DNA of 48,331 bases from an uncultured Gammaproteobacteria bacterium. Lineage in GTDB: Bacteria > Patescibacteriota > Patescibacteriia > Patescibacteriales > UBA12465. The stretch lies in NCBI GenBank assembly GCA_964539015.1, contig CAZIHD010000002.1, forward strand, positions 1 through 48,331, read 5' to 3'. The translations under genes and the position numbers were made by a program. A model generated the notes under the pieces. It was not told where the DNA came from, did not search any database, and was given only the letters and a program-made list of their open reading frames with translations. Every line of letters begins with the position of its first letter. The stretch's first letter is position 1. Of this stretch, positions 1-32,033 are shown piece by piece.

Positions 1-2
1 GC

Positions 3-47
3 AAAATTAACTATTTAATCCCTTCAAAACTGTTTGACAAAGGGGAC
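3..47. repeat. Copy A of a 45-bp interspersed repeat (partner at 30880-30924)
   Basis: The 27-mer aaaattaactatttaatcccttcaaaa is identical at 3-29 and 30880-30906. The next 18 nt have 5 mismatches. Confidence 0.85.
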
Positions 48-214
48 CGGTATACCCTATGACATTATCACTTTGCGGGGACATATTGAGGTTCATTCAA
101 ATAATCAGATTTTTGAGCAACTCTATACAAGACTCTTACATTTAAGACCATTTGAAGGCAGGGTAAATTAAAGCTTTTATTGGCCAAATTTACATATTAT
201 AGTAATATAAAAAA

Positions 215-748
215 TCAAAGATTTAAGTTATAAAAGTGCAAATCAATCGGAATGCCTTTAATTTTCGCTTTTTCCATAGTATCAACCGTTCCTAGTCCTT
301 CACTGTCTTTAGTTTTAACCCAAAACGCAACGAGTCCGTCTGACGCCGCGACAATATCCGAATTTTCCTCATAATAACACTTAAGTTTATTCTCTTCAGT
401 AAAATTGGTATCAGGATTTTCAATTAAAGCTACTGGATTTATTCTTTTTAATTCGGTTAATTGGTTAATAAGAGCTTCTGCTTGATTTTCGGTAATATCT
501 CCGAGCTCAACATATTTATGATAATTTTCAATATATTTACTCAGAGTAGTGGGAAGAAAAACTTTGATTCGCTCACAGAAACTATCATGCCTCATAGCCT
601 CATCAAGAGCGATGGAATCGACATTGAAAGCCCCGCCGGAGACAATACCATCCCCGCGTTGCATAATCTCTGCCACAACTCGGCGGACATCATTTTTAAT
701 TTTTTTATCAATAAGATGCCAGCCGCCGCTGATACCAATCCATTTCAT
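215..748 (-). CDS. SLOG / DprA-Smf / LOG-superfamily-like Rossmann protein (177 aa)
   Basis: ATG start and TGA stop. Gly-rich loops GISGGW and IVSGGAFNVDS, plus a C-terminal SDGLVAFW...GLGTVDTMEKAKIKGIPI, resemble the DprA/LOG Rossmann pattern. Assignment is by motif only. Confidence 0.45.
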   Translation of the reverse strand: MKWIGISGGWHLIDKKIKNDVRRVVAEIMQRGDGIVSGGAFNVDSIALDEAMRHDSFCERIKVFLPTTLSKYIENYHKYVELGDITENQAEALINQLTELKRINPVALIENPDTNFTEENKLKCYYEENSDIVAASDGLVAFWVKTKDSEGLGTVDTMEKAKIKGIPIDLHFYNLNL

Positions 749-788
749 AAACCTTTATATTTTATACACGAAATTGTTTTTTTGAATA

Positions 789-1541
789 TTATTTCAAAGT
801 TTTAATAATTTTTAAATCAAAAATATCTTCTTTTATTTTCAATTTTTTTAACAATTTTCTGGCATTCACCTCCCCGCCGACATAATTAAACAGCTTTTTA
901 ACATTTCTCCCGTATCGTGGTTCTTTCAAGCCAGCCAAACTTTTTAATAATAAATTTATTTCAGCTGGCTCCGGCTGTTTAAAACCCAAAGACATAAATC
1001 TCAGGCAAGCGAATAAATTGGCCGGATGGCTTAGTTGATTTAACTTTAATCGTTTGTTTTTTAAATCAGTTAAAGCGCCCGGCAAAGAGATTAATTTGTC
1101 AAACCAATCTTCTCTAAAAATATCTTTTAACGATATGGTTGAACCGTTAATGGTAAAATTAGAATTTTTAGCTAAGTTTTTTAAGGCGCTTTTTTCTTCC
1201 GAGATATGAATATCTAAATACAGATAATCATTATGAATATGTATTGGTTTTGGAGTCCGCTTCATTTTTACCACCACCTCATGTTTTCTCTTGATTTTGC
1301 CGTAGACAAAACCGTTGCTTCTCAAATTTTTTATAAAACCATCTTGGTCGCCAATTAACATTATATCAAAATCTCTCCGGGGCAATTCTTTTTTAAAATA
1401 TTTGTAATAAATGGCGTTTCTAACAGCGCCGCCTACCAAATAAGCCTTGGTGCCTTTGGGAATTGAGGCCACGACGATTTTAAATATTTCATTAGTTTTT
1501 TCATCTTGAAGAAAAAGCGGTAATTTTTTATTGATTGGCAT
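789..1541 (-). CDS. Short CCA-adding enzyme / poly(A) polymerase family nucleotidyltransferase (head+neck only, 250 aa)
   Basis: The head motif LVGGAVRNAIYY...PRRDFDIML matches GGxVRD...DxD. A degenerate motif LFACLRFMSLGF is present. It is too short to carry the tRNA-binding body and tail. Confidence 0.55.
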   Translation of the reverse strand: MPINKKLPLFLQDEKTNEIFKIVVASIPKGTKAYLVGGAVRNAIYYKYFKKELPRRDFDIMLIGDQDGFIKNLRSNGFVYGKIKRKHEVVVKMKRTPKPIHIHNDYLYLDIHISEEKSALKNLAKNSNFTINGSTISLKDIFREDWFDKLISLPGALTDLKNKRLKLNQLSHPANLFACLRFMSLGFKQPEPAEINLLLKSLAGLKEPRYGRNVKKLFNYVGGEVNARKLLKKLKIKEDIFDLKIIKTLK

Positions 1542-1550
1542 AATATTTGT

Positions 1551-2024
1551 TCACTTAGAGCTATTGCCTTCAAGCTCTTTTTCTCGAAAAGTTTGAATTT
1601 TAACTAAATAATCTTTGTCTTTTTGCCGATCATATCTCTTAACCATTTCTTTCTTCCAATCTTCAACTATATCTAAATTGGCGAATTTAAATCCATCGAC
1701 AATCATAGGATTGCTTCTAATTTTATCTAAAAAATCTCCGTAGCCAGGCCAGGATATCCCAATATCGACCCCCATGTCATCAATAAATATTTTATATAAT
1801 TTTTGATCTTGATTTTTATGAAAAGTGACTTCTTGGGCATCACCAGGAACGACGGATCTATCAAAAACATTAACATCCAAATCGTTAATCTTCCCAGAAA
1901 AATCTACCACCCCCAATAAATAAAGCGGAGCTGAACCAAAAACGATAAAATCATTACCAATTTTATCTCGAAGTTTGATTAAATATGGTTTGATATAATT
2001 AAAAAAATCTTGGTTGATTTCCAT
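1551..2024 (-). CDS. Minimal Pol-beta-fold nucleotidyltransferase (157 aa)
   Basis: FGSAPLYLLGVVDFSGKINDLDVNV matches the GS...DxD signature. Only 9 nt separate it from the next gene. Confidence 0.5.
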   Translation of the reverse strand: MEINQDFFNYIKPYLIKLRDKIGNDFIVFGSAPLYLLGVVDFSGKINDLDVNVFDRSVVPGDAQEVTFHKNQDQKLYKIFIDDMGVDIGISWPGYGDFLDKIRSNPMIVDGFKFANLDIVEDWKKEMVKRYDRQKDKDYLVKIQTFREKELEGNSSK

Positions 2025-2032
2025 ATAAGTTA

Positions 2033-2041
2033 ATTATAGCT
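2033..2041 (-). promoter_or_regulatory. -10 box AGCTATAAT, 8 nt upstream of the ATG at 2024 (near-leaderless)
   Basis: The reverse complement of attatagct at 2033-2041 gives AGCTATAAT. It is a variant of the recurrent TGCTATAAT box. Confidence 0.45.
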
Positions 2042-2156
2042 TAAAAACTCTGAGTTTAAAAACAGTTGGTAGAATTTAAACTAATTTTAGTTAATAAAAA
2101 TAAGCTAATTGGTTAAAATAATAAATTGACAGCCAATTTTTTAACTATTTTCCCTA

Positions 2157-2185
2157 ATGAAAACGAGCCTTTCGGCTCATTTTTT
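2157..2185. terminator. Orphan terminator-like hairpin in a divergent intergenic region
   Basis: gagcc-tttc-ggctc is flanked by an A-run and a T-run (atgaaaacgagcctttcggctcatttttt). No upstream gene on either strand needs it. Confidence 0.35.
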
Positions 2186-2325
2186 GTATATTTGCTCATT
2201 TGGAGGAGCTGCTTTTGAACTTTATTTGCGAAAATATTAACAAACCAAGACATTGACTAAATTAAATAAACATTGTAACATAAAAAATCAATCAAATAAA
2301 TTGTCGAACCTTTAAAACTTAATAA

Positions 2326-3153
2326 ATGGAACATGCACAGGAAAATTTTGTTTTAAATATTAATAATGACGAATCCCCCATAATCATCACCGTACCTCAT
2401 GGGGGTATGAATAATTCTTATGGATCATGGCTAGAATCCTTATTTCAAAAAAGAACTAAGTCGGACAATCCAGAAGAAAATATTATTCAAGGAGAAAAAA
2501 TAGTTCTCGGAGGAGACAATCAAATAATGCATGTGGTTGCCGATGTTTTAAGGGAATATCAAGCAAATGTTATTATTGGTCTCTTGCCAAGAACATTTAT
2601 TGACTATAATCGCTTTGTTCCAGAAGTAGCTTATGTGGATAAAGGGTTAAAGCCATTCTATGAATCTTATCATCAAACAATTTCGGAGACTATAGAAAGG
2701 TTGAAGAAAAAATGGGGTTTAGTATTTCTGTTCGATTTTCATGGTTTTGGCAAACAACCAATCGAAGGCAAAGAATTCGATATTATTCTAGGAACCAACG
2801 GAGAGTCAAGCCCATATAAAACTGACAGATTTTTCTTTAATTCCCTGAAAAATGAATATCAGATATTTTGTGCTGGCGCAGATGGTATGTCAATAATTGA
2901 AACCAATCTCTATAAAGGTGATACTACGAATCTATTTTATTATAAAAAATACGGTATAGATGCATTACTTGTAGAAATATCATCAAAATTCAGGAGTTCA
3001 AAAAATACAAATTCCAAAGAACTTGGTAAAAAACTTGCCAAAGATTTAGGCTTATTTTTTAATAGACTAGATAAAAAAGCAAAAGAGATACAAATGGACA
3101 TTAACGGCCTATCGTCTAGCGGATCAAATCTGTATTTATTGAAAGACTTCTAA
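2326..3153 (+). CDS. N-formylglutamate amidohydrolase (FGase) family hydrolase
   Basis: The N-terminal ITVPHGG, IDYNR and FDFHGFG motifs are typical of the FGase fold. It is the only plus-strand gene in island 1. Confidence 0.5.
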   Translation: MEHAQENFVLNINNDESPIIITVPHGGMNNSYGSWLESLFQKRTKSDNPEENIIQGEKIVLGGDNQIMHVVADVLREYQANVIIGLLPRTFIDYNRFVPEVAYVDKGLKPFYESYHQTISETIERLKKKWGLVFLFDFHGFGKQPIEGKEFDIILGTNGESSPYKTDRFFFNSLKNEYQIFCAGADGMSIIETNLYKGDTTNLFYYKKYGIDALLVEISSKFRSSKNTNSKELGKKLAKDLGLFFNRLDKKAKEIQMDINGLSSSGSNLYLLKDF

Positions 3154-3251
3154 TAATTTTAAAGAGTAGTAAACCTACTCTTTTTATTTTTAAAATTGTT
3201 TTTTTAATGATTAGGAACGTGGATAATATTAGAAATTAAAATAATATAATT

Positions 3252-3869
3252 TTACTCTTGAGCGATTAATTTTACTATCTTAAATATAATATCGTCGGCT
3301 TCAGTTTCATCAATAATTTTTCCGACTTTATTCTGATTAATTTTATCAAAAAAGTTATCTACTCCGGCTTTTTTCAAAGCGATAATTTCTTCCTTAGCTG
3401 TGGCTTCGTCGCCAAGATTTTCTAAAGCTTGGTTTATAATTATCGAACCCTTTAAAAAATCATATAAATCTTTAAAGGAATCGAAATCTTTAATTTTCTG
3501 CTTTTGTTTATATTCTTTAAAATTCAATTCCAAATTATTTAAAAATTCCGGATAATATTTATTTAACCTCGCCCACCCTCTATTATAAGCGTCTTTTTCT
3601 TTTTGGATATTTTTATTTTCATTTTGATCAAAATCAATAAATTCATCCTGCCTTAAATGTCCTAATTCATGAATAATTACAGCCATAGAAAAAAATTTAT
3701 CTCCTTTAGGATACCGGATCTCAAAATTATTGTTCTCCATAGTTCTGCCCGTTCCTTGAATTTCTAATGGCCAATTTAACTCTTTAAACAATTCCGTTCT
3801 TTCTTCGAAAGGCATTAAGGCTTTCAGGGGGATAATATTTTCTTTTATAATAAATTTTCTCTCATCCAT
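3252..3869 (-). CDS. Putative Zn metallopeptidase (HExxH)
   Basis: IIHELGHLRQDE is followed about 20 residues later by EKDAYNRG, which could be a gluzincin third-ligand motif like E-x-x-A-D in M48/M78 peptidases. The family is uncertain. Confidence 0.4.
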   Translation of the reverse strand: MDERKFIIKENIIPLKALMPFEERTELFKELNWPLEIQGTGRTMENNNFEIRYPKGDKFFSMAVIIHELGHLRQDEFIDFDQNENKNIQKEKDAYNRGWARLNKYYPEFLNNLELNFKEYKQKQKIKDFDSFKDLYDFLKGSIIINQALENLGDEATAKEEIIALKKAGVDNFFDKINQNKVGKIIDETEADDIIFKIVKLIAQE

Positions 3870-3903
3870 ATATTAAAGCTATTTTTAAATCACTTTAAAG
3901 TCT

Positions 3904-4305
3904 TTAACGGCAGTCCTCTTGGCAGCTGCAATGATTTTCCCCATATTGAGCTTCGCATTTGCCATTACCACAAGGGGCGCATAAGCTGTTGCCGCCAGAT
4001 TGATAGCCGCAGACATTCTTATTATTTGGATCAACGATGCCAGTAATGGCTTTTAAGCCGGCGCAGCAAGCTTTCCCGCCCGGTACTAATTTACCGGTGC
4101 TTTTATCAATTAAATTCGGCGTCTCTCCTATCTTTGCGCAATCGGCTGTTTCATTAATCGGCGGCGATTGATCTTTATTTGTATTGCCGGTCGGAATAAC
4201 GTTATTATCTTTGATTAACGGCTCAGAATTTTTGTTTATTGTACATCCTGAGGTTAATAATAGACAAAACACAAAACTTAAAACAAAAAAATAACCTTTT
4301 TTCAT
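3904..4305 (-). CDS. Secreted cysteine-rich lipoprotein
   Basis: The lipobox LLLTSGC follows a hydrophobic signal. The C-terminal half has many Cys residues and ends in CGNGKCEAQYGENHCSCQEDC. Confidence 0.6.
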   Translation of the reverse strand: MKKGYFFVLSFVFCLLLTSGCTINKNSEPLIKDNNVIPTGNTNKDQSPPINETADCAKIGETPNLIDKSTGKLVPGGKACCAGLKAITGIVDPNNKNVCGYQSGGNSLCAPCGNGKCEAQYGENHCSCQEDCR

Positions 4306-4360
4306 AATTTTAATTTTTAATAGAATTTAATTTAAAATTAATTATATAAATATGGGTTGT

Positions 4361-5407
4361 TTATTTAAAATAATTATTGACGGCATCTTCAAACTGATCA
4401 ATAAACATTTGTTTAAAATAAGAAATATTATTTAATTCGTAAAATAATATAACCGCCTTTTTATATTCCTCGACATCCACAATTCGATAGGAAAGCGGAA
4501 TTGAATTATGCGCCAACAAAAGAGCATTAGAAAGCATCCGAGAGGTTCTTTTGTTGCCATCTTCAAAAATTTGGATATAGGCGATAAGAATTGAAACTAA
4601 AAACGCTTTTTCAAAAAATGATTCTTTTTTATTAATCAGACCAACCATATTTTGCATCGCTTCCTTAATTTGCGGCTCATTATCCAAAGGTCGATACTTT
4701 GTACCAGTAATTCCAACGCCTTCTTTTCTAATATTTTTCGTAATTCCCAGTTTTTTAGTCAAAACAGAATGAATATATTCAATATCACTAGAACGTAATT
4801 TAATAAATCGTTCTCTGCTTTGAATGGCTTCATTAAAAGCATCTTTATGATTAAGAATCATCTGTGTTTCTTCTTTTGTCTTTCCATATCCTACAACATT
4901 ATTTTTTATTAAGGCCTCGGTGCCTAAAAGCGAATAAGTATTTCCTTCAATTGCTGAGGATTTCCAAGAAAACTCAATCATTATTCTCTCAAACTCCTTA
5001 TTAATAATAGTTTGACTGTCGTATTTGGAAAAGTTTTTAACAAATTCTCTTTGCAGGTTTTCTAGTTTTTCTTTCTCTTCAGCCGTAAAAATATCATTAC
5101 TCAAAATATTAAATATTTCAAAATTAAAATTTTCTTTTACTTCTCTGTCTAAATAAGGAATATCGAAATATTCTTTGATATTAACCGATAAAGATATTTT
5201 ATTTATTTCGGTAATAGAATAAACCGTACCTCTACCAGAACCAGATTTTATAATCAAACCCTTTTTTTGCAAAAAATTTAAATCTCTTTGGAGGGTTGTT
5301 CTTTCAATAACATCACCAAGAAAATCTAAAATATCGGAGTTAGATACTTCACTTTTGCTCTGAATAAAATTAATGATATTTTGTTGTCTTTCTTGTTTCT
5401 TGCTCAT
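4361..5407 (-). CDS. DeoR-type wHTH fused to a Fic/Doc domain with a degenerate active-site motif
   Basis: The N-terminus ERTTLQRDLNFLQKKGLIIKSGSGRG is a DeoR-like HTH. The Fic core reads QIFEDGNKRTSR instead of HPFxDGNGRxxR. An inhibitory-helix-like SSAIEGN is present. Confidence 0.7.
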   Translation of the reverse strand: MSKKQERQQNIINFIQSKSEVSNSDILDFLGDVIERTTLQRDLNFLQKKGLIIKSGSGRGTVYSITEINKISLSVNIKEYFDIPYLDREVKENFNFEIFNILSNDIFTAEEKEKLENLQREFVKNFSKYDSQTIINKEFERIMIEFSWKSSAIEGNTYSLLGTEALIKNNVVGYGKTKEETQMILNHKDAFNEAIQSRERFIKLRSSDIEYIHSVLTKKLGITKNIRKEGVGITGTKYRPLDNEPQIKEAMQNMVGLINKKESFFEKAFLVSILIAYIQIFEDGNKRTSRMLSNALLLAHNSIPLSYRIVDVEEYKKAVILFYELNNISYFKQMFIDQFEDAVNNYFK

Positions 5408-5413
5408 GTTTTT

Positions 5414-5441
5414 ATTATAGCATTTAATTGCTGCATTTCAA
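5414..5441 (-). promoter_or_regulatory. Strong sigma70-type promoter predicting a leaderless Fic mRNA
   Basis: On the minus strand: -35 TTGAAA (5441-5436), a 16-nt spacer, then TGCTATAAT (5422-5414), then 6 nt, then the ATG at 5407. Confidence 0.6.
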
Positions 5442-5536
5442 ATGCTTTATTGCTGCATTTTATCAAAAATCCTCAAAAAGTCAAGTAAATTCACATTTAA
5501 TTGCTGCATTTTATCGAGCATTATTGCGACATTTTT
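5421..5536. repeat. Four operator-like direct repeats (core TTGCTGCATTT)
   Basis: The core occurs at 5428-5438, 5450-5460 and 5500-5510, with the variant ttgcgacattt at 5524-5534. All lie upstream of, or overlap, the Fic promoter. Confidence 0.7.
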
Positions 5537-5643
5537 CAAGTCTATTTGCGGCTTAAATATTAAAACTACCGATATTTTCTCCAACGCATTTATTATACTG
5601 CGCCCAAACCCTTCCCTTGGTTCGAGTCCGTCCTGTAATAAAT

Positions 5644-5670
5644 AAAATCACACCCAATGAGTGTGATTTT
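5644..5670. terminator. Bidirectional hairpin terminator downstream of tRNA-Gln
   Basis: aaaatcacac / gtgtgatttt forms a 10-bp stem with a 7-nt loop. Confidence 0.6.
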
Positions 5671-5678
5671 ATTTAGTG

Positions 5679-5749
5679 CTCGGGGACGTGGACTCGAACC
5701 ACGATTAACAGGACCAGAACCTGTCGTCCTACCATTAGACGATCCCCGA
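5679..5749 (-). tRNA. tRNA-Gln (anticodon CTG)
   Basis: Manual cloverleaf: acceptor TCGGGGA/TCCCCGA (U1-A72), D stem GTCT/GGAC, anticodon stem ACAGG/CCTGT with loop TTCTGGT, and T arm CGTGG-TTCGAGT-CCACG. No CCA is encoded. Confidence 0.9.
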
Positions 5750-5755
5750 ATAATA

Positions 5756-6193
5756 TTATTTTTTCCTAATTTCCCAATCAGCTATCTTCCCTGCTTCTAC
5801 TTTAAACAAAATATGGCTAACCGGCTTAACAATTTTTCTTAACTCTTCAAAACGTTTCTTATCGCGCTTAGCCAGCTTGACCAACAAATGTTGAAATTCG
5901 TATTCTAGCTGGCCACTGCTTACTTTAATATTTTTTAATTTTTTTTTCAAGGGGTTGATTTTTGATTGATCAAAATTATAACCTCGCCCCAAAGCTTCGC
6001 GATAAATCCCTTCTAAATAAGCATTAATATAATCCAGCGGCTTTTCTTGTTCTTTAAATCTAAGAAGCTGGGGGTGATTTCGATATCCTTTTGTTTTTCC
6101 GGCCAAAACTTTTTTGGCCAATAATCCTTCCCGCCAAACAGCCAAAAGTCCCGACCGGTCTAAATATTCCGGAGACAGGCTCCAAAGGCGCAT
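5756..6193 (-). CDS. Pyrimidine dimer DNA glycosylase / endonuclease V family
   Basis: The N-terminus MRLWSLSPEYLDRSGLLAVWREGLLAKKVL...GYRNHPQLLRF is characteristic of this family. Confidence 0.7.
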   Translation of the reverse strand: MRLWSLSPEYLDRSGLLAVWREGLLAKKVLAGKTKGYRNHPQLLRFKEQEKPLDYINAYLEGIYREALGRGYNFDQSKINPLKKKLKNIKVSSGQLEYEFQHLLVKLAKRDKKRFEELRKIVKPVSHILFKVEAGKIADWEIRKK

Positions 6194-6194
6194 A

Positions 6195-7685
6195 TTATTT
6201 TAAATCTTCTTTTTCTATCTTTGGCCTCATTAACGGGAACAAAGTCGTTTCTCGAAGCGGTTTATCCGCCATAAAAGCAAATAAGCGTTCACCAAAACCG
6301 AAACCGCAAGTCGGTGGCATCCCGTGTTCCAGCATTTCGACAAATTCCCAATCCGGCATCATCGCTTCTTTATCACCTCGGTCAATTAAGCGCTGTTGCA
6401 ATTCAAAGCGCTGGCGCTGATCCACTGGATCGTTAAGTTCCGAAAAACCATTGCCGACCTCGCTGCCGGCGATAATTATCTGAAAACGCTCGGTCAATTC
6501 CGGGTTGGCGGGATTGGCCTTGGATAATGGTGAAACTAATTTAGGATGATTAACAAGAAAAACCGGACCGGTAATCGTGCGGCGGCAATATTTCCACAGC
6601 GTATCCATCAAACGTTCGCGATTATCGCCTTCATATTTAACTTCCAGCTCATCAAGTTTTGTTTTCATTTCTTGTTCCGTCGCTTTCAAAACATCGATTC
6701 CGGTAAGCCTTAAAATTTCCCCGCAATAATCTAATCGCGGCCACTCGCCGGCCAAGTCATATTCCATGCCCTTGGTGGTAAATTTCGTCTTATTAAACAC
6801 TTTTAAGGCAATCTCCTGATACAATTCCTGTGTTAATTTCATGCCTGATTCATAATCGGCGTAAGCCCAATAAAATTCCAGATTGGTAAATTCCTGCAGA
6901 TGATCCGGACTGGAGCCTTCGTTGCGATAGACGCGGCCGATTTCAAAAACCTTCTCAAAGCCGGCGGCCATCAAGCGTTTCTGCCACAGTTCACCGACGG
7001 AAATACGCAGATAAACATCCAAGTCAAAATCATCGTGATGAGTTTTAAACGGATTAGCTTCGGCGCCGCCGGTCGTTGTTTCCAGGGTTGGTGTTTCTAC
7101 CTCAAAAAAACCGTGCCGTTTCATAAAATCGCGAGCCACTTCCCAGAACAAAGCTTTTTTATAAAACAATTCCCGTGTTTCCGGATGTAAAAGAATATCC
7201 AAATAACGCTGGCGATAGCGTTCGTCTTCGTCTTTCAGCCCATACCAGGCATCAGGAATTGGCGCAATCGCTTTGGCTAAAACAGCCCAAGCGGATACCA
7301 TTAAGCTCTTTTCATCGGTATGGGTCAGAAAAACACTGCCGGTTGCTTCAATAAAATCGCCCGCATCAATTAATTTCACTAAAAGTTTATAACTCTCATC
7401 GCCTAATTCTTTTTTGGAAAAAGCCAGCTGGATTTGACCGGAAGCATCCTCTAAATTTGCGAAAGTCAGATTACCATGGCCGCGCAAGCTGCGCAGGCGT
7501 CCGGCCACAGTTATTTTCGTCTTATTTGCAACTAAATTTTCAAAATCAGAAAAGACGCCGGCAATCTCATGATCGCGATGAGTGGCGGCCGGATAAGGAT
7601 TAACGCCCGCCTCTTTTAAGGCGGCTAATTTTTTCAAGCGTTCTTCCCTTTCACTGCCGGGAGCCATAATCTTTTCCTCGGACAT
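6195..7685 (-). CDS. lysS: Lysine--tRNA ligase, class II
   Basis: Class II motifs are present (VYRNEGSSPDH, GFGFGERL), together with an OB-fold N-terminus and a typical length. Confidence 0.95.
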   Translation of the reverse strand: MSEEKIMAPGSEREERLKKLAALKEAGVNPYPAATHRDHEIAGVFSDFENLVANKTKITVAGRLRSLRGHGNLTFANLEDASGQIQLAFSKKELGDESYKLLVKLIDAGDFIEATGSVFLTHTDEKSLMVSAWAVLAKAIAPIPDAWYGLKDEDERYRQRYLDILLHPETRELFYKKALFWEVARDFMKRHGFFEVETPTLETTTGGAEANPFKTHHDDFDLDVYLRISVGELWQKRLMAAGFEKVFEIGRVYRNEGSSPDHLQEFTNLEFYWAYADYESGMKLTQELYQEIALKVFNKTKFTTKGMEYDLAGEWPRLDYCGEILRLTGIDVLKATEQEMKTKLDELEVKYEGDNRERLMDTLWKYCRRTITGPVFLVNHPKLVSPLSKANPANPELTERFQIIIAGSEVGNGFSELNDPVDQRQRFELQQRLIDRGDKEAMMPDWEFVEMLEHGMPPTCGFGFGERLFAFMADKPLRETTLFPLMRPKIEKEDLK

Positions 7686-27935: not shown

Positions 27936-28015
27936 ATAAGAAAAACGGCAATCTTAGTAAAAAATGGATAAAATTTAAATTCAAGACAAATTTATTATAT
28001 ATTAAATAAATGCCT

Positions 28016-28044
28016 TTGACAATTGATTCTATATTTATTATACT
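28016..28044 (+). promoter_or_regulatory. tRNA-Leu promoter
   Basis: -35 TTGACA (28016-28021), a 17-nt spacer, then -10 TATACT (28039-28044). It lies about 20 nt upstream of the tRNA. Confidence 0.6.
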
Positions 28045-28063
28045 AAATTTCGTAATTAATATG

Positions 28064-28147
28064 GCCGCGGTGGCGGAACTGGTAGACGCGCACGACTCAA
28101 ACTCGTGTGGGGGCGACTCCGTGAGGGTTCGATTCCCTCTCGCGGCA
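28064..28147 (+). tRNA. tRNA-Leu (anticodon CAA), type II with long variable arm
   Basis: Manual fold: acceptor GCCGCGG/TCGCGGC, anticodon stem CACGA/TCGTG with loop CTCAAAC, and T arm GAGGG-TTCGATT-CCCTC. The discriminator is A. Confidence 0.9.
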
Positions 28148-28220
28148 CAATAAAAGACTCCGAAAGGAGTCTTTTCTGTTAGTGCCAAGAGAGCGAGCCA
28201 CTAATGTGGCTCGCGTAGGG
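28131..28220 (+). repeat. Direct repeat copy A (tRNA-Leu 3' end + terminator + second hairpin)
   Basis: This 90-nt copy matches 28323-28413 apart from 2 substitutions and 1 extra T. Confidence 0.9.
28152..28175 (+). terminator. tRNA-Leu terminator hairpin (GAAA tetraloop)
   Basis: aaaagactcc-gaaa-ggagtctttt. An identical copy lies at 28344-28367. Confidence 0.7.
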
Positions 28221-28322
28221 AATCGAAAGCCGGAGCGATGTGCCGAAGGCACCGCGAGGCCGGGTCGGGGCGCTTGCTTTTCACTGAGTGAAACGAGAGT
28301 GAAAAGCTTAGCGACCGTGACC

Positions 28323-28413
28323 GATTCCCTCTCGCGGCACAATAAAAGACTCCGAAAGGAGTCTTTTTCTGTTAGTGCCAAGAGAGCGAGTCACTAATGT
28401 GGCTCGCTTAGGG
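28323..28413 (+). repeat. Direct repeat copy B (orphan tRNA-Leu 3' end)
   Basis: This 91-nt copy starts at gattccctctcgcggca. Weaker homology to the tRNA variable arm (gcgac-cgtga) lies just upstream. Confidence 0.9.
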
Positions 28414-28653
28414 TTTACCTATTTCTATGATTTCCATAGTTTGTATCTATTTAATTTATCAAGTATACAAAGTATACGAGTTTGTATATATCAAACCAAG
28501 AAACGTATACAAACTTTCGATTCAGAAAACAAAATTTAATTTTTTAAACATGATTTAATGTTAGCAAATTTACCACTTTTTCAGCTACAATAACATCACA
28601 ATTTTTTGTTTCGCTGGTAATACAAGAGGAAGTAATGAAATAAAGATTCAAAT

Positions 28654-29913
28654 TTATAACAATGATACCTGCTCTTTAAAAAAATTTGGCTCAACTAGCG
28701 TAGCCTTCTCCATTGTCTTGGGATCAAATTTTTTATTTAACATCCCAATAATACAACGACCAATGTGATACGCGAGATTTGTAGGAACGGCATTTCCAAT
28801 TTGTTTATATTGTGAACAAGTTGAACCGGAAAAATTCCAATCGTCCGGAAAAGTTTGTATTCTGGCGTATTCTCTAACCTTAAGAGGTCTGGTCTCTTCT
28901 GGGTGGCATCTTTCGGTTTGTTTCTGCGCCGGAGCACAAGTTAAGGTTAAACTAGGCTCATCCCATGACAACCTTCTTGCCATTCCGGTTTTTCCACCAC
29001 CCATATAAAAACTAGACATCATATATTCTTTTTGTAATTCTAACGGAAGGTCTCTCCAATAACCACCTGGCGGAACTAATTTTAAAATCTCTTTCTTTCT
29101 CTTAGGATATTCTTGACCAATCGAATCGGGACAATTTTCTAAAGCCTCACGTATTGAAATTGTATAATCTTTTTCTTTCGGGAAAAAGATCGGCAAATTC
29201 AAATCCTTTCTAACCGCTAAGATAATTAATCTCTCTCTTTTCTGCGGAACATCAAAATACTGAGCCCTAAGAACTTTAAAGGCAACATTATAGCCTAACT
29301 CAATTAAAACATTAAGAATTACTTTAAGAGTTTTGCCATTATCATGTTTTAAAAGCCCTCTTACATTTTCGCCCATTACTACTTTTGGCCTTACTTCCTT
29401 TACACAACGAGCCAATTCAAAAAACATTGTTCCTCTTACGTCTTCAAAGCCTAATTTTTTACCGGCAAAACTAAAAGTTTGGCACGGAAACCCTCCCTCA
29501 ACAACATCCGCTTTTATTCCTTTAAAATTTATCTCCCTGATATCTCCTTGAATAACATTCCATTTTGGTCGATTAGTTTTTAGAGTTTCAACAGCGTTTT
29601 TATCCCAATCCGTTAAAAGCGTATGTTTCAATCCGGCATTATCAAAGCCGATTGCGGTTCCACCCGCTCCAGCAAATAACTCAATTACTTTATAATTTGT
29701 TTTTTTAGCATTCTTCAATATTTTATAATTATTACCAACATGTTTGCCAGAAATTTTATTTTGGACTCTTATTAACTCATTCATATCGAAAAGACGATAG
29801 TTTAATTCCGATCGCTTGGCTTTAATCAAACCCTTCTTTTCCCATCTTCTTATTGTATCCGGCGACAAAGTTAATGTTTCTGCCGCTTCAAGAACCGTTG
29901 AATATGTATTCAT
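28654..29913 (-). CDS. DNA (cytosine-5)-methyltransferase with N-terminal MerR-like HTH
   Basis: m5C motifs are present: ELFAGAGG (I), GFPCQTFS (IV), ENV (VI), QKRERL (VIII) and GNAVP (X). The N-terminal HTH reads LSPDTIRRWEKKGLIKAKRSELNYRLF. Confidence 0.9.
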   Translation of the reverse strand: MNTYSTVLEAAETLTLSPDTIRRWEKKGLIKAKRSELNYRLFDMNELIRVQNKISGKHVGNNYKILKNAKKTNYKVIELFAGAGGTAIGFDNAGLKHTLLTDWDKNAVETLKTNRPKWNVIQGDIREINFKGIKADVVEGGFPCQTFSFAGKKLGFEDVRGTMFFELARCVKEVRPKVVMGENVRGLLKHDNGKTLKVILNVLIELGYNVAFKVLRAQYFDVPQKRERLIILAVRKDLNLPIFFPKEKDYTISIREALENCPDSIGQEYPKRKKEILKLVPPGGYWRDLPLELQKEYMMSSFYMGGGKTGMARRLSWDEPSLTLTCAPAQKQTERCHPEETRPLKVREYARIQTFPDDWNFSGSTCSQYKQIGNAVPTNLAYHIGRCIIGMLNKKFDPKTMEKATLVEPNFFKEQVSLL

Positions 29914-29938
29914 ATAAACTAATAAAAATTATGTTTTA

Positions 29939-29947
29939 ATTATAACA
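29939..29947 (-). promoter_or_regulatory. Extended -10 TGTTATAAT for the methyltransferase
   Basis: This is the reverse complement of attataaca, 25 nt upstream of the ATG at 29913. It abuts the palindrome. Confidence 0.5.
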
Positions 29948-29975
29948 ATAACCCTTGCATTATGCAAGGGTTATT
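29947..29975. promoter_or_regulatory. 29-bp perfect palindrome (candidate operator and/or R-gene terminator)
   Basis: aataacccttgcat-t-atgcaagggttatt has 14-bp arms. Confidence 0.6.
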
Positions 29976-30009
29976 AAATTATCTAATTTTATTGGTTTTT
30001 ATCTCTCTA

Positions 30010-30735
30010 CTAATCCTTATAAGCCTTGCTAAAAAGTTCTTTAAAAAATTTATCTTTAATTAAATATTTATGGTTCTTATTCAAAATTATTCCTATTACC
30101 GTTGGTAAAACATTATAAAGCATTCTGAGCGCATTTTTTTCTCCGGTTGCGTAAAAATAAAAACTATTACCATCAATTCTTCTTATTTTTTCAATTCCCT
30201 TTCGTCGTGTCTTAGTTTTATTATCCGACGGCGAAAATATATCATTATATTCTTTCTTATTTTGAGGAATAATTTCAACATAGTAGGCCGTATATCCTTT
30301 ATATTTATTTTTTAACTGCGACTCCAAATCATCATAGATAGCCACCTTATGATTTCCCTTGGTTGTGTTAAATTTATTTTTAACCTCAGCAATTATTTTT
30401 TTATTTTTATTAAGCAAATCAAATACGTGCCCCTTCCCCATATCTTCCCATCCATTGACACAACCCAATATTTTCTGGTGAAATTCGCCAATAGCATTCT
30501 GCATGGTTTTTTGTATCTGTCTTGAACCCTCTTGTTTAATCCATTGATTTAAAGATATATCTTGTATGAGAGCATCGAAAATTGCAGAAAATGGATCAAT
30601 CGCATTTTTATATAAATTCTTGTCACACATATTCACGGCGACCTGTGCTGAGATAATAACTTCCTCAACCTTATTAAACAAATCTTGATTGCTTATGTAC
30701 GGCAATAATTGTTTTGACGGTATTTTGTATGGCAT
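30010..30735 (-). CDS. Type II restriction endonuclease (possibly Eco47II-like)
   Basis: It is adjacent to, and co-oriented with, the m5C MTase. A PD-(D/E)xK-like signature is present: VFDLL...IIAEVKNK. The family name comes from memory only. Confidence 0.55.
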   Translation of the reverse strand: MPYKIPSKQLLPYISNQDLFNKVEEVIISAQVAVNMCDKNLYKNAIDPFSAIFDALIQDISLNQWIKQEGSRQIQKTMQNAIGEFHQKILGCVNGWEDMGKGHVFDLLNKNKKIIAEVKNKFNTTKGNHKVAIYDDLESQLKNKYKGYTAYYVEIIPQNKKEYNDIFSPSDNKTKTRRKGIEKIRRIDGNSFYFYATGEKNALRMLYNVLPTVIGIILNKNHKYLIKDKFFKELFSKAYKD

Positions 30736-30781
30736 GTTGTTTGCGGCTAATTGAATTAGATTTTAACTCTTACAAAAAAAA

Positions 30782-30790
30782 ATTATAGCA
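30782..30790 (-). promoter_or_regulatory. Extended -10 TGCTATAAT (restriction gene)
   Basis: This is the reverse complement of attatagca, 46 nt upstream of the ATG at 30735. Confidence 0.45.
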
Positions 30791-30879
30791 CAAAAAAAGT
30801 ATTCATAAAATCAAAATAAATTCATATAGATAGAAAATATTAATACCCTCATCACCCATTTATTAAATATAGCGTCGGA

Positions 30880-30924
30880 AAAATTAACTATTTAATCCCT
30901 TCAAAAATGTTTGGCAGGGGGCAC
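30880..30924. repeat. Copy B of the 45-bp interspersed repeat
   Basis: See copy A at 3-47. It lies 9 nt beyond the Fic stop codon. Confidence 0.85.
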
Positions 30925-30932
30925 TATAATAA

Positions 30933-32033
30933 TTATTTTCTAATTATTTTACGCAAATCAGAAAACCCGTAAATCTTATTACGTGCGTTATCTGGCGTCA
31001 AATCTTTAATAATATTTAGTTCCACAAATTTTTCGATTACCGAATATAAAGTCTGGTTATTAGAAATACCGGAAATACTCTTAATCGACCGAGCCATAAA
31101 AGTCGATTTTGTAAAAATTGAGTCCAAAAATGAATTAGCATATATCGAGCCGACCTTTGGCATTATTTCTTTAAGAGATTTATAGAGTTTTTCAATTTTT
31201 TCAACCCGATCAAGTGTAATCTTTGTTTGTTCGTAGATAGCGTCCAAAAAGAAGCTTATCCATGGTAACCAGGCTCCTTTTTCACTGACATCTCGCAATA
31301 ATTCATAATAAACGTTTCTGTGTTCTTCTAAATATTCACTGATATATATATTAGGATAAGATGTAACTTTATTTTCATACAAAAATAGTGGAACAAGCAG
31401 CCTGCCCACGCGGCCATTTCCATCCATAAAAGGATGAATAGCCTCAAACTGATAATGAGCCACAGCGATTTGGATAAGAGGATCCAGCACATCCTTAGTA
31501 TTAATATACTTCTCTAAATTAGAAAACAAACCGGGTATATGTTGCGGCTCCGGCGGAATAAACGTCGCTTGCTCAATAGTGGCGCCATAAGACCCGATGT
31601 AGACTTGATTCTTTCGAAATTCACCAGGATTTTTATTTTTACCACGGACAGAACTTAAAAGTATTTTATGTAAGTCTTTGACTACATTTTCGGCAATCGG
31701 CCTCTTTTCTAAAAATTCTTTTCCTTTTCTTATCGCTAAGCGATAATTAAAAATCTCTTGATAATCTTTTTCACTTTCGTTTTCTTCTGTTTTTGTATCT
31801 TTGGCGTCAAAAAGCAAGACCTCATCTAAAGTAGCCTGAGTTCCTTCAATTTTTGAACTTAAAACGGCCTCCTTTGTGGCAAAAGAGCGTTGAATAATAT
31901 CTGGATTTGGCAACCTTTTAACCGCCTCATCATAACGAGCAACAATATCTCTTGCTCTGATTATCTTGGTAAAAACAGAAGAATATTCTAATTTAGGCGG
32001 TAAAAACGGAGGAATAAATGACTTTTTTGGCAT
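30933..32033 (-). CDS. Fic family protein (canonical AMPylase-type motif)
   Basis: It has HPFMDGNGRVGR, an N-terminal Fic_N-like region and the inhibitory motif SSKIEGT. Confidence 0.9.
   Translation of the reverse strand: MPKKSFIPPFLPPKLEYSSVFTKIIRARDIVARYDEAVKRLPNPDIIQRSFATKEAVLSSKIEGTQATLDEVLLFDAKDTKTEENESEKDYQEIFNYRLAIRKGKEFLEKRPIAENVVKDLHKILLSSVRGKNKNPGEFRKNQVYIGSYGATIEQATFIPPEPQHIPGLFSNLEKYINTKDVLDPLIQIAVAHYQFEAIHPFMDGNGRVGRLLVPLFLYENKVTSYPNIYISEYLEEHRNVYYELLRDVSEKGAWLPWISFFLDAIYEQTKITLDRVEKIEKLYKSLKEIMPKVGSIYANSFLDSIFTKSTFMARSIKSISGISNNQTLYSVIEKFVELNIIKDLTPDNARNKIYGFSDLRKIIRK

Follow-up and report, generated by a model that had tools for sequence, protein, structure and literature searches.

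Class II tRNA nucleotidyltransferases, that is, the CCA-, CC- and A-adding enzymes and PcnB, share a head domain (PF01743) and a neck, carry catalytic carboxylates in GGxVR(D/N) and DxD motifs, and run to 370-460 amino acids with a tRNA-binding body and tail. Their RRD (motif B) and EDxxR (motif D) motifs select the ribose and template CTP and ATP, and the CCA/A-adding enzymes are universal. The MenT1 (Rv0078A) and AbiEii toxins of DUF1814 combine a small Pol-beta core, bearing GS and DxD motifs, with a C-terminal helical subdomain, and the C-terminal motifs III and IV specific to DUF1814 are defined in PMC10435456. The DprA/Smf and YpsA-type proteins of the SLOG superfamily have an SGGAxGxD nucleotide-loop region and a C-terminal GxGT motif, and DprA-like proteins act as antitoxins to a phosphoribosyltransferase toxin in ShosTA and PsyrTA, the ShosTA toxin being so described in a passage of PMC11961720. 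Nucleotide-second-messenger systems of the CBASS type join a cGAS/DncV-like (SMODS) nucleotidyltransferase to SLOG, SAVED or TIR domains. Here, we describe three adjacent minus-strand genes that bring distant relatives of these proteins together at the start of a 48,331-nucleotide stretch of a Patescibacteriota genome (contig CAZIHD010000002.1 of assembly GCA_964539015.1, positions 1-48,331; the whole of this stretch is hereafter the window): g1 (1551-2024), a 157-residue open reading frame (ORF) for a minimal, stand-alone Pol-beta nucleotidyltransferase; g2 (789-1541), a 250-residue ORF for the head and neck only of a class II nucleotidyltransferase of the CCA/A-adding, poly(A)-polymerase type; and g3 (215-748), a 177-residue ORF for a stand-alone, DprA/YpsA-like SLOG Rossmannoid protein. 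An original prediction, made from the DNA sequence alone, had proposed the trio as a nucleotide-centred conflict module. Our analyses make it likely, instead, that the trio consists of independent and individually dispensable accessory genes, brought together by a lineage-specific juxtaposition in a variable region, and that it is not a conserved defence or toxin-antitoxin module.

Conservation and layout of the trio

The neighbourhood was compared across three samples: g2 loci, each with at most 6 kb of flanking sequence, from 33 species-representative genomes, 80 metagenome loci of g3, and six loci ascertained through g1 itself. Among the g2 loci, g3 was found in none of the 33 and g1 in one (L007, where it lies 1.9 kb off and is not adjacent), and a search of the same loci for a recurrent gene family beside g2 returned none. 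The g3 loci gave a similar picture, with g2 present in 0 of 80 and g1 in 1 of 80 (L070). All six g1 loci were without either partner and presented six unlike sets of neighbours, including hydrolases, a Band_7 protein, a histidine phosphatase, YecM, a helix-turn-helix (HTH)-Fic pair and a GNAT acetyltransferase, among others. The intact trio recurred only in L001/L002, in which g2 is 95% identical and the DNA 94.5-98.2% identical to that of the window. In L003, L006 and L131, where g2 is still 82-87% identical, the trio is broken and g2 stands alone. A distance of about 13 kb separates g2 from g1 on one 189-kb contig, and in L130, g3 and g1 are separated by 1.4 kb, in opposite order and with two unrelated genes in between. 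The distributions of the families also differ, since g2 occurs in bacteria of the Candidate Phyla Radiation (CPR) and in DPANN archaea, whereas the named homologues of g1 and g3 all belong to Patescibacteria (under the names Patescibacteria, Parcubacteria or Paceibacterota). Conservation of the three-gene neighbourhood was the point on which the original prediction had staked the conflict module and, because this neighbourhood is not conserved, the module is refuted as a conserved system.

A search with PADLOC for a known defence system, which had been suggested as a check, was likewise unsupportive: no defence model matches g1 or g2, and the only matches of g3, to PsyrA (E = 3e-4) and ShosA (E = 0.011), are weak and short, spanning residues 19-56. 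A nucleotidyltransferase gene does adjoin a SLOG gene here, as in CBASS-type systems, but by the counts given above the adjacency is not conserved, the two nucleotidyltransferases are of the CCA type and MenT-like, with no PADLOC or Pfam match to the cGAS/DncV-like type, and g3 carries no fused effector domain.

The physical description of the locus, on the other hand, stood up well. The three genes are co-directional, with gaps of 9 nt between g1 and g2 (1542-1550) and 40 nt between g2 and g3 (749-788), and all of the motifs quoted in the original prediction are present (GS...DLD in g1, GGAVRNAIYY...RRDFDIML in g2, and GISGGW and IVSGGAFNVDS in g3). All three appear to be real genes, having dozens to hundreds of homologues each and showing, relative to L001, synonymous codon differences that equal or exceed the non-synonymous ones (14 versus 5, 26 versus 13, and 9 versus 9). 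A single promoter box ahead of g1 was also confirmed, in the form of a sigma-70-like candidate on the minus strand (TTTAAA, 16 nt, TATAAT; 2060-2033) with 10 of 12 matches, which is the top-scoring site within 1-2400. Its -10 box, AGCTATAAT, stops 8 nt ahead of the g1 ATG and, judging from this position, the g1 transcript would be nearly leaderless. Just upstream of the promoter candidate, a strand-neutral GC-rich hairpin (2165-2178; GAGCC-loop-GGCTC, with A and T runs on its flanks) looks like a bidirectional terminator that would set the transcription unit of the trio apart from the genes upstream. The hairpin, the promoter candidate and the g1 start codon are all conserved in the close relative L001. 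The hairpin stem is identical in the two (around 4390 in L001) and the loop is reverse-complemented, GAAA versus TTTC, as would be expected of palindrome inversion.

We infer that the trio is probably co-transcribed from the g1 promoter, and that this co-transcription would be incidental in a compact genome written mostly in one direction. The minus strand carries 35 of the 41 predicted genes of the window, and half of the same-strand intergenic gaps are of 40 nt or less; therefore, the shared direction and tight packing of the three genes carry little weight.

Three protein families

Taken singly, g1, g2 and g3 gave only chance-level matches against NCBIfam, and plain sequence searches of the PDB returned nothing useful for any of them. 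The family assignments below come from profiles built on homologues and, for g1 and g2, from structural models.

The product of g2 had been read as a CCA- or poly(A)-polymerase-type nucleotidyltransferase too short to retain the tRNA-binding body and tail, and both parts of this reading are upheld. Its AlphaFold2 model (predicted local distance difference test score, pLDDT, 94.2) matches class II enzymes in Foldseek at E = 3e-10 to 1e-7, with the Aquifex A-adding enzyme at E = 3e-10 and the Thermotoga CCA enzyme at a template-modelling (TM) score of 0.68, and with a CC-adding enzyme and PcnB also among the matches. The alignment spans about 235-250 columns of enzymes of 370-460 residues (TM no more than 0.36-0.44 when normalised to targets of 410-460 residues), and g2, with its 250 residues, thus corresponds to head plus neck without body and tail. 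The head-domain model PF01743 is matched by 20 of 49 members of the family at E<=0.01, the g2 of the window itself scoring 19.1 bits, below the gathering threshold of 23. The catalytic G37-G38-A-V-R41-N42 and D57-x-D59 are conserved across the 49 homologues and align with the motif of the Aquifex enzyme. The residues that confer nucleotide selection in class II enzymes are replaced: at the position of motif B, ahead of a conserved FTIN, RRD has given way to N126-S127-N128, and at that of motif D, ahead of LFAxLRF, EDxxR has given way to S171-H172-P173-A174-N175, the family consensus being HPxN. Having lost the RRD and EDxxR motifs as well as body and tail, g2 is no typical CCA-, CC- or A-adding enzyme. 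It would rather be a class II core with an intact catalytic centre, unable to measure tRNA or to template C and A, whose nucleotides probably go to another acceptor or are chosen with another specificity.

The tRNA-Gln gene of the window encodes no 3' CCA, CACTAAAT coming after the acceptor stem, so the organism must add CCA enzymatically, and the window encodes no canonical GGxVRD-type enzyme other than g2. The possibility that g2 is the organism's own CCA-adding enzyme was considered for this reason and was rejected on account of its missing domains and motifs and of the rarity and patchiness of its family.

In contrast to the universal CCA/A-adding enzymes, the g2 family is patchy in CPR bacteria and DPANN archaea, with about 13 of the 33 species loci (L006-L038) archaeal, including one in a complete genome (CP010426, archaeon GW2011_AR20). 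The CCA enzymes of archaea are normally of class I, and a class II-type core in these organisms is therefore unexpected. A rough neighbour-joining tree, which carries no support values and takes its taxonomy from genome bins, intermixes archaeal and bacterial members and suggests repeated transfer of the family between CPR and DPANN lineages.

The reading of g1 as a minimal nucleotidyltransferase found support in its predicted fold as well as its motifs. The AlphaFold2 model, built from 48 homologues, has a pLDDT of 92.6, and among PDB structures Foldseek ranks the MenT1 toxin of the MenAT1 complex first (8an5_B; probability 1.0, TM 0.54, E = 7.6e-3), ahead of a class I CCA enzyme, PolX, TUT7 and SpoT. 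In the 48-homologue alignment, F29-G30-S31 and D48-L-D50 (Pol-beta motifs I, hG[GS], and II, DxD) and D87 are invariant, and G30-S31, D48-x-D50 and D87 fit the Pol-beta catalytic set. Through these residues, g1 would bind Mg-NTP (nucleoside triphosphate) and transfer the nucleoside monophosphate to a hydroxyl group.

The protein shares with MenT1 and AbiEii the small Pol-beta core, the C-terminal helical subdomain, in which its family conserves the basic residues K124, R133 and K135, and the GS and DxD motifs, yet the likeness is one of fold. None of the 48 members matches any nucleotidyltransferase or DUF1814/AbiEii family of Pfam at E<=1, the Pfam matches of the family being scattered, at chance level (E>=0.0075) and to unrelated families only, and neither the g1 sequence nor the family profile matches any PDB sequence. 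The family is narrow, with 52 representatives at E<=1e-3 among 1.84 billion, and a scan of viral contigs with the g1 alignment found no relatives; by structure, the fold is common to uncharacterised jumbo-phage proteins.

Unlike MenT and AbiEii, g1 has no adjacent conserved antitoxin gene, nor any other conserved neighbour, in the six loci, which speaks against its being a toxin paired with an antitoxin. Some g1 relatives are, moreover, fused to other domains, namely a GNAT acetyltransferase at the C-terminus of some and a CYTH domain at the N-terminus of one distant relative (proteins P0268, P0269, P0271 and P0303). In L132 (2078-3116), a GNAT gene stops 4 nt before g1, and this GNAT is 74% identical to one encoded two genes upstream of g2 in L003. 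The most likely acceptor of g1 would be an RNA 3' end, which the MenT1-like fold favours, and a small molecule would be the alternative in view of the GNAT fusions and GNAT neighbours.

The resemblance of g3 to the Smf/DprA-LOG (SLOG) proteins was borne out at the level of the family, in which 48 of 48 members match the DprA family PF02481 (best E = 2.9e-10), 28 match cpYpsA, 4 YpsA and 1 YAcAr, and whose profile in turn matches Helicobacter pylori DprA at 1.4e-4. The g3 of the window taken alone scores 17.8 bits, below the Pfam gathering threshold of 29.6. The conserved elements of the family are GISGGW, SGGAxxVD and GxGTxDT, and the matches centre on the SGGAxxVD loop, with a significant DprA alignment of about 32-37 residues; TIGR00732 (DprA) covers residues 16-56 (model positions 58-98 of 220) at 16 bits versus a cut-off of 191. 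A GISGGW loop right after the N-terminal strand is consistent with a Rossmannoid three-layer fold, and the matched proteins lack an equivalent of the helical insert at about residues 70-135. Taken together, the family profiles place g3 in the SLOG superfamily, where it shares the nucleotide-loop region and the C-terminal GxGT motif with DprA/Smf and YpsA-type proteins. With 177 residues and none of the extra domains of DprA, it is not DprA proper. It also differs from the antitoxins of ShosTA and PsyrTA, as its matches to them cover only the common SLOG loop, no phosphoribosyltransferase lies beside it, its partners g1 and g2 in the window being nucleotidyltransferases, and it usually has no conserved partner. 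By its family, g3 would be a SLOG-type binder of a nucleotide ligand or an N-glycosidase. Its closest homologues, the top-scoring matches, which are 56-80% identical to the protein of the window, have a mean column identity of 70%.

The only recurrent neighbour of g3 is a Nudix-box ORF, found on the same strand within 1.5 kb in 10 of the 80 loci (L039-L118), some of which are near-duplicates. The density of such ORFs is 0.056 per kb near g3 versus 0.016 per kb further out (about 3.5 times) and 0.023 per kb around g2, and a weak functional link between the two is possible. This would fit a report that, in genomes of DNA viruses, SLOG and Nudix domains tend to be found together (PMC9503650). Nudix genes near g3 are also seen in L130 (78-557) and L001 (8121-8837). 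In L088 (1134-2978), a high-GC metagenome contig, a g3 homologue lies in an open frame of 615 codons that runs into sequence resembling ProA (glutamate-5-semialdehyde dehydrogenase), which could reflect either a gene fusion or an overlooked stop.

The flexible region beside tRNA-Gln

The trio had been placed in a low-GC, tRNA-flanking island beside Fic genes, and this setting is confirmed in all but one detail. The GC content is about 0.30-0.33 in 1-6000 versus about 0.44 elsewhere on the contig, and the low-GC flexible region (1-5683, both strands) is bounded by the 3' end of a tRNA-Gln gene with a CTG anticodon (5678-5749, minus strand), which forms the border with the core genome, and is truncated at position 1, where the contig ends. 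There is, however, a single Fic gene rather than several, encoding an HTH-Fic protein of 348 amino acids (4361-5407, minus strand; Pfam Fic E = 8e-14). Besides the Fic gene and the trio, the region holds a gene resembling N-formylglutamate amidohydrolase (FGase-like; 2326-3153, plus strand) and two genes without a Pfam match, for a 205-residue protein with an HELGH (HExxH) metalloprotease-like motif and a 133-residue Cys-rich protein with a lipoprotein-like signal peptide (3252-3869 and 3904-4305, in the order named); among the loci fetched, the last two occur only in L001/L002. An Rfam scan of 1-6300 found tRNA only.

Several comparisons point to the mobility of this gene content. The core genes upstream of the region, that is, a Wzy-like gene, GreA, a class II aminoacyl-tRNA synthetase and tRNA-Gln, with Pyr_excise also on the core side, recur in L127 and L128 (Wzy-like gene, GreA, synthetase and tRNA-Gln), where they are followed by unrelated cargo: after tRNA-Gln (2715-2786 in L127, 2769-2840 in L128), L127 has g1 alone of the trio and L128 has g3 alone. 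The gene in front of g1 in L127, of 208 residues, and the one in front of g3 in L128, of 213 residues, were examined as possible homologues of the 205-residue gene upstream of the trio in the window and were rejected, as they are not homologous. The block homologous to L001 stops at 5683 in the window (1824 in L001), which is exactly the 3' end of tRNA-Gln, and at this block end the tRNA is absent from L001, where a gene for an aldehyde dehydrogenase lies instead. The FGase-like gene is absent at the same position in L001 (4255-4518), the flanking DNA being 94-98% identical, and this difference appears to be a recent insertion or deletion of a single gene. From these comparisons, the site after tRNA-Gln looks like a tRNA-linked insertion hot spot. 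A search of 1-6300 for attachment-site-like direct repeats of the tRNA-Gln 3' end found none, the other end of the island lying beyond the contig. The region is a flexible, tRNA-bounded, low-GC one in which small accessory genes are shuffled, and g1, g2 and g3 are part of that mobile pool.

Directly upstream of the HTH-Fic gene (5421-5515), copies of CATTTAATTGCTGCATTT and of the related TTGCTGCATTTTATC are repeated, also in L001. They look like operators at which the Fic protein, through its N-terminal HTH, would regulate its own gene. A second low-GC patch (0.33-0.37) lies at 28001-32000 beside tRNA-Leu (28064-28148) and may be another tRNA-linked flexible region.

Alternative readings and significance

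We therefore return to the reading of g1, g2 and g3 as genes lying side by side by chance in a flexible low-GC region of one narrow Patescibacteria (CPR) lineage. Several observations weigh against it. Other arrangements place g1 within 2 kb of g2 or g3 in L007, L070 and L130, and this proximity could reflect a weak functional affinity rather than common residence in variable regions. The loci came from pattern-based scans in which many contigs are short, with at least 1.5 kb on both sides in 33 of the 80 g3 loci. The genes are tightly packed behind one good promoter with a terminator-like hairpin upstream, which makes co-transcription probable, all three folds are nucleotide-related, which is thematically suggestive, and the HTH-Fic gene is SoFic-like, being the only gene of the region to match a defence model (PADLOC SoFic, E = 1.3e-19).

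The last of these observations bears on the alternative that fares best, although we regard it as improbable, namely that the region is a defence-type island in which each of g1, g2 and g3 acts on its own as a one-gene factor of defence or counter-defence, the three having gathered independently. It would account for a low-GC variable region adjoining a tRNA gene, for the SoFic-like neighbour, for the tRNA-modifying toxin that is the closest solved fold of g1, with its structural relatives among jumbo-phage proteins, and for the short matches of g3 to the DprA-like antitoxins PsyrA and ShosA. It agrees poorly with the lack of a PADLOC model for g1 and g2 and with the absence from the region of any integrase, restriction or other defence gene besides the Fic gene. 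Furthermore, the neighbours of the three genes elsewhere are mostly ordinary small enzymes and transporters, and g3, being strongly conserved and widespread in CPR, appears more metabolic or housekeeping-like than shaped by an arms race.

Quite unlikely, in our view, is a new functional operon specific to the lineage, in which one or both nucleotidyltransferases would make a nucleotide product or modify RNA and the SLOG protein would sense or process the result. The spacing, single promoter, hairpin and layout shared with L001 speak for such an operon, as do three nucleotide-handling folds and the proposal that SLOG domains sense or process nucleotides in conflict systems (PMC9503650). Such spacing and orientation are, however, typical of the contig as a whole, and the arrangement is not conserved past the relative whose g2 is 95% identical. 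Neither nucleotidyltransferase is of the signal-generating cGAS/DncV-like type, PADLOC finds no match, and each family is well conserved and evidently functional alone in many genomes. A still more doubtful version is that the trio, newly united in one Patescibacteria lineage, is a nucleotide-centred module, for conflict or regulation, that is only now emerging; the corresponding mechanism, in which the MenT-like and truncated CCA-type nucleotidyltransferases would alter an RNA end or generate a nucleotide product that the SLOG protein would bind or cleave, strikes us as equally doubtful. More likely than this nascent module is that g2 represents an uncharacterised family of head-plus-neck class II nucleotidyltransferases, with altered nucleotide-selection motifs, exchanged between CPR and DPANN. 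Least plausible of all is a toxin-antitoxin system in which g1, as a MenT/AbiEii-like tRNA nucleotidyltransferase toxin, would be neutralised by g2 or g3, since, even though MenT1 in its MenAT1 complex is the best structural match of g1, MenT antitoxins are diverse (PMC10435456) and DprA-like antitoxins (ShosA and PsyrA) are described elsewhere in passages of PMC11961720 and PMC12961424, the similarity to MenT1 is only moderate, no g1 member matches the Pfam AbiEii/DUF1814 family, the six independently sampled g1 loci offer no g2, g3 or conserved neighbour, and g2 and g3 each occur far more often without g1.

The reading of the trio as independent accessory genes thus remains the one that we favour. 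The trio adds three members to superfamilies already known and is not a new system. Its failure as a candidate new defence or toxin-antitoxin system saves the effort of toxicity and rescue experiments on the unit as a whole, and g1 and g2 are reasonable biochemical targets, neither of which alters current understanding. The finding extends to the families themselves: g1 widens the MenT-like fold to solitary genes without an antitoxin, and g2 shows that the class II catalytic core persists when the tRNA-binding domains and the CTP- and ATP-templating residues are both missing, in a family apparently transferred between CPR bacteria and DPANN archaea. Together, g1, g2 and g3 represent three uncharacterised families of small enzymes of the sort that typically make up the accessory genes of ultrasmall symbiotic bacteria.

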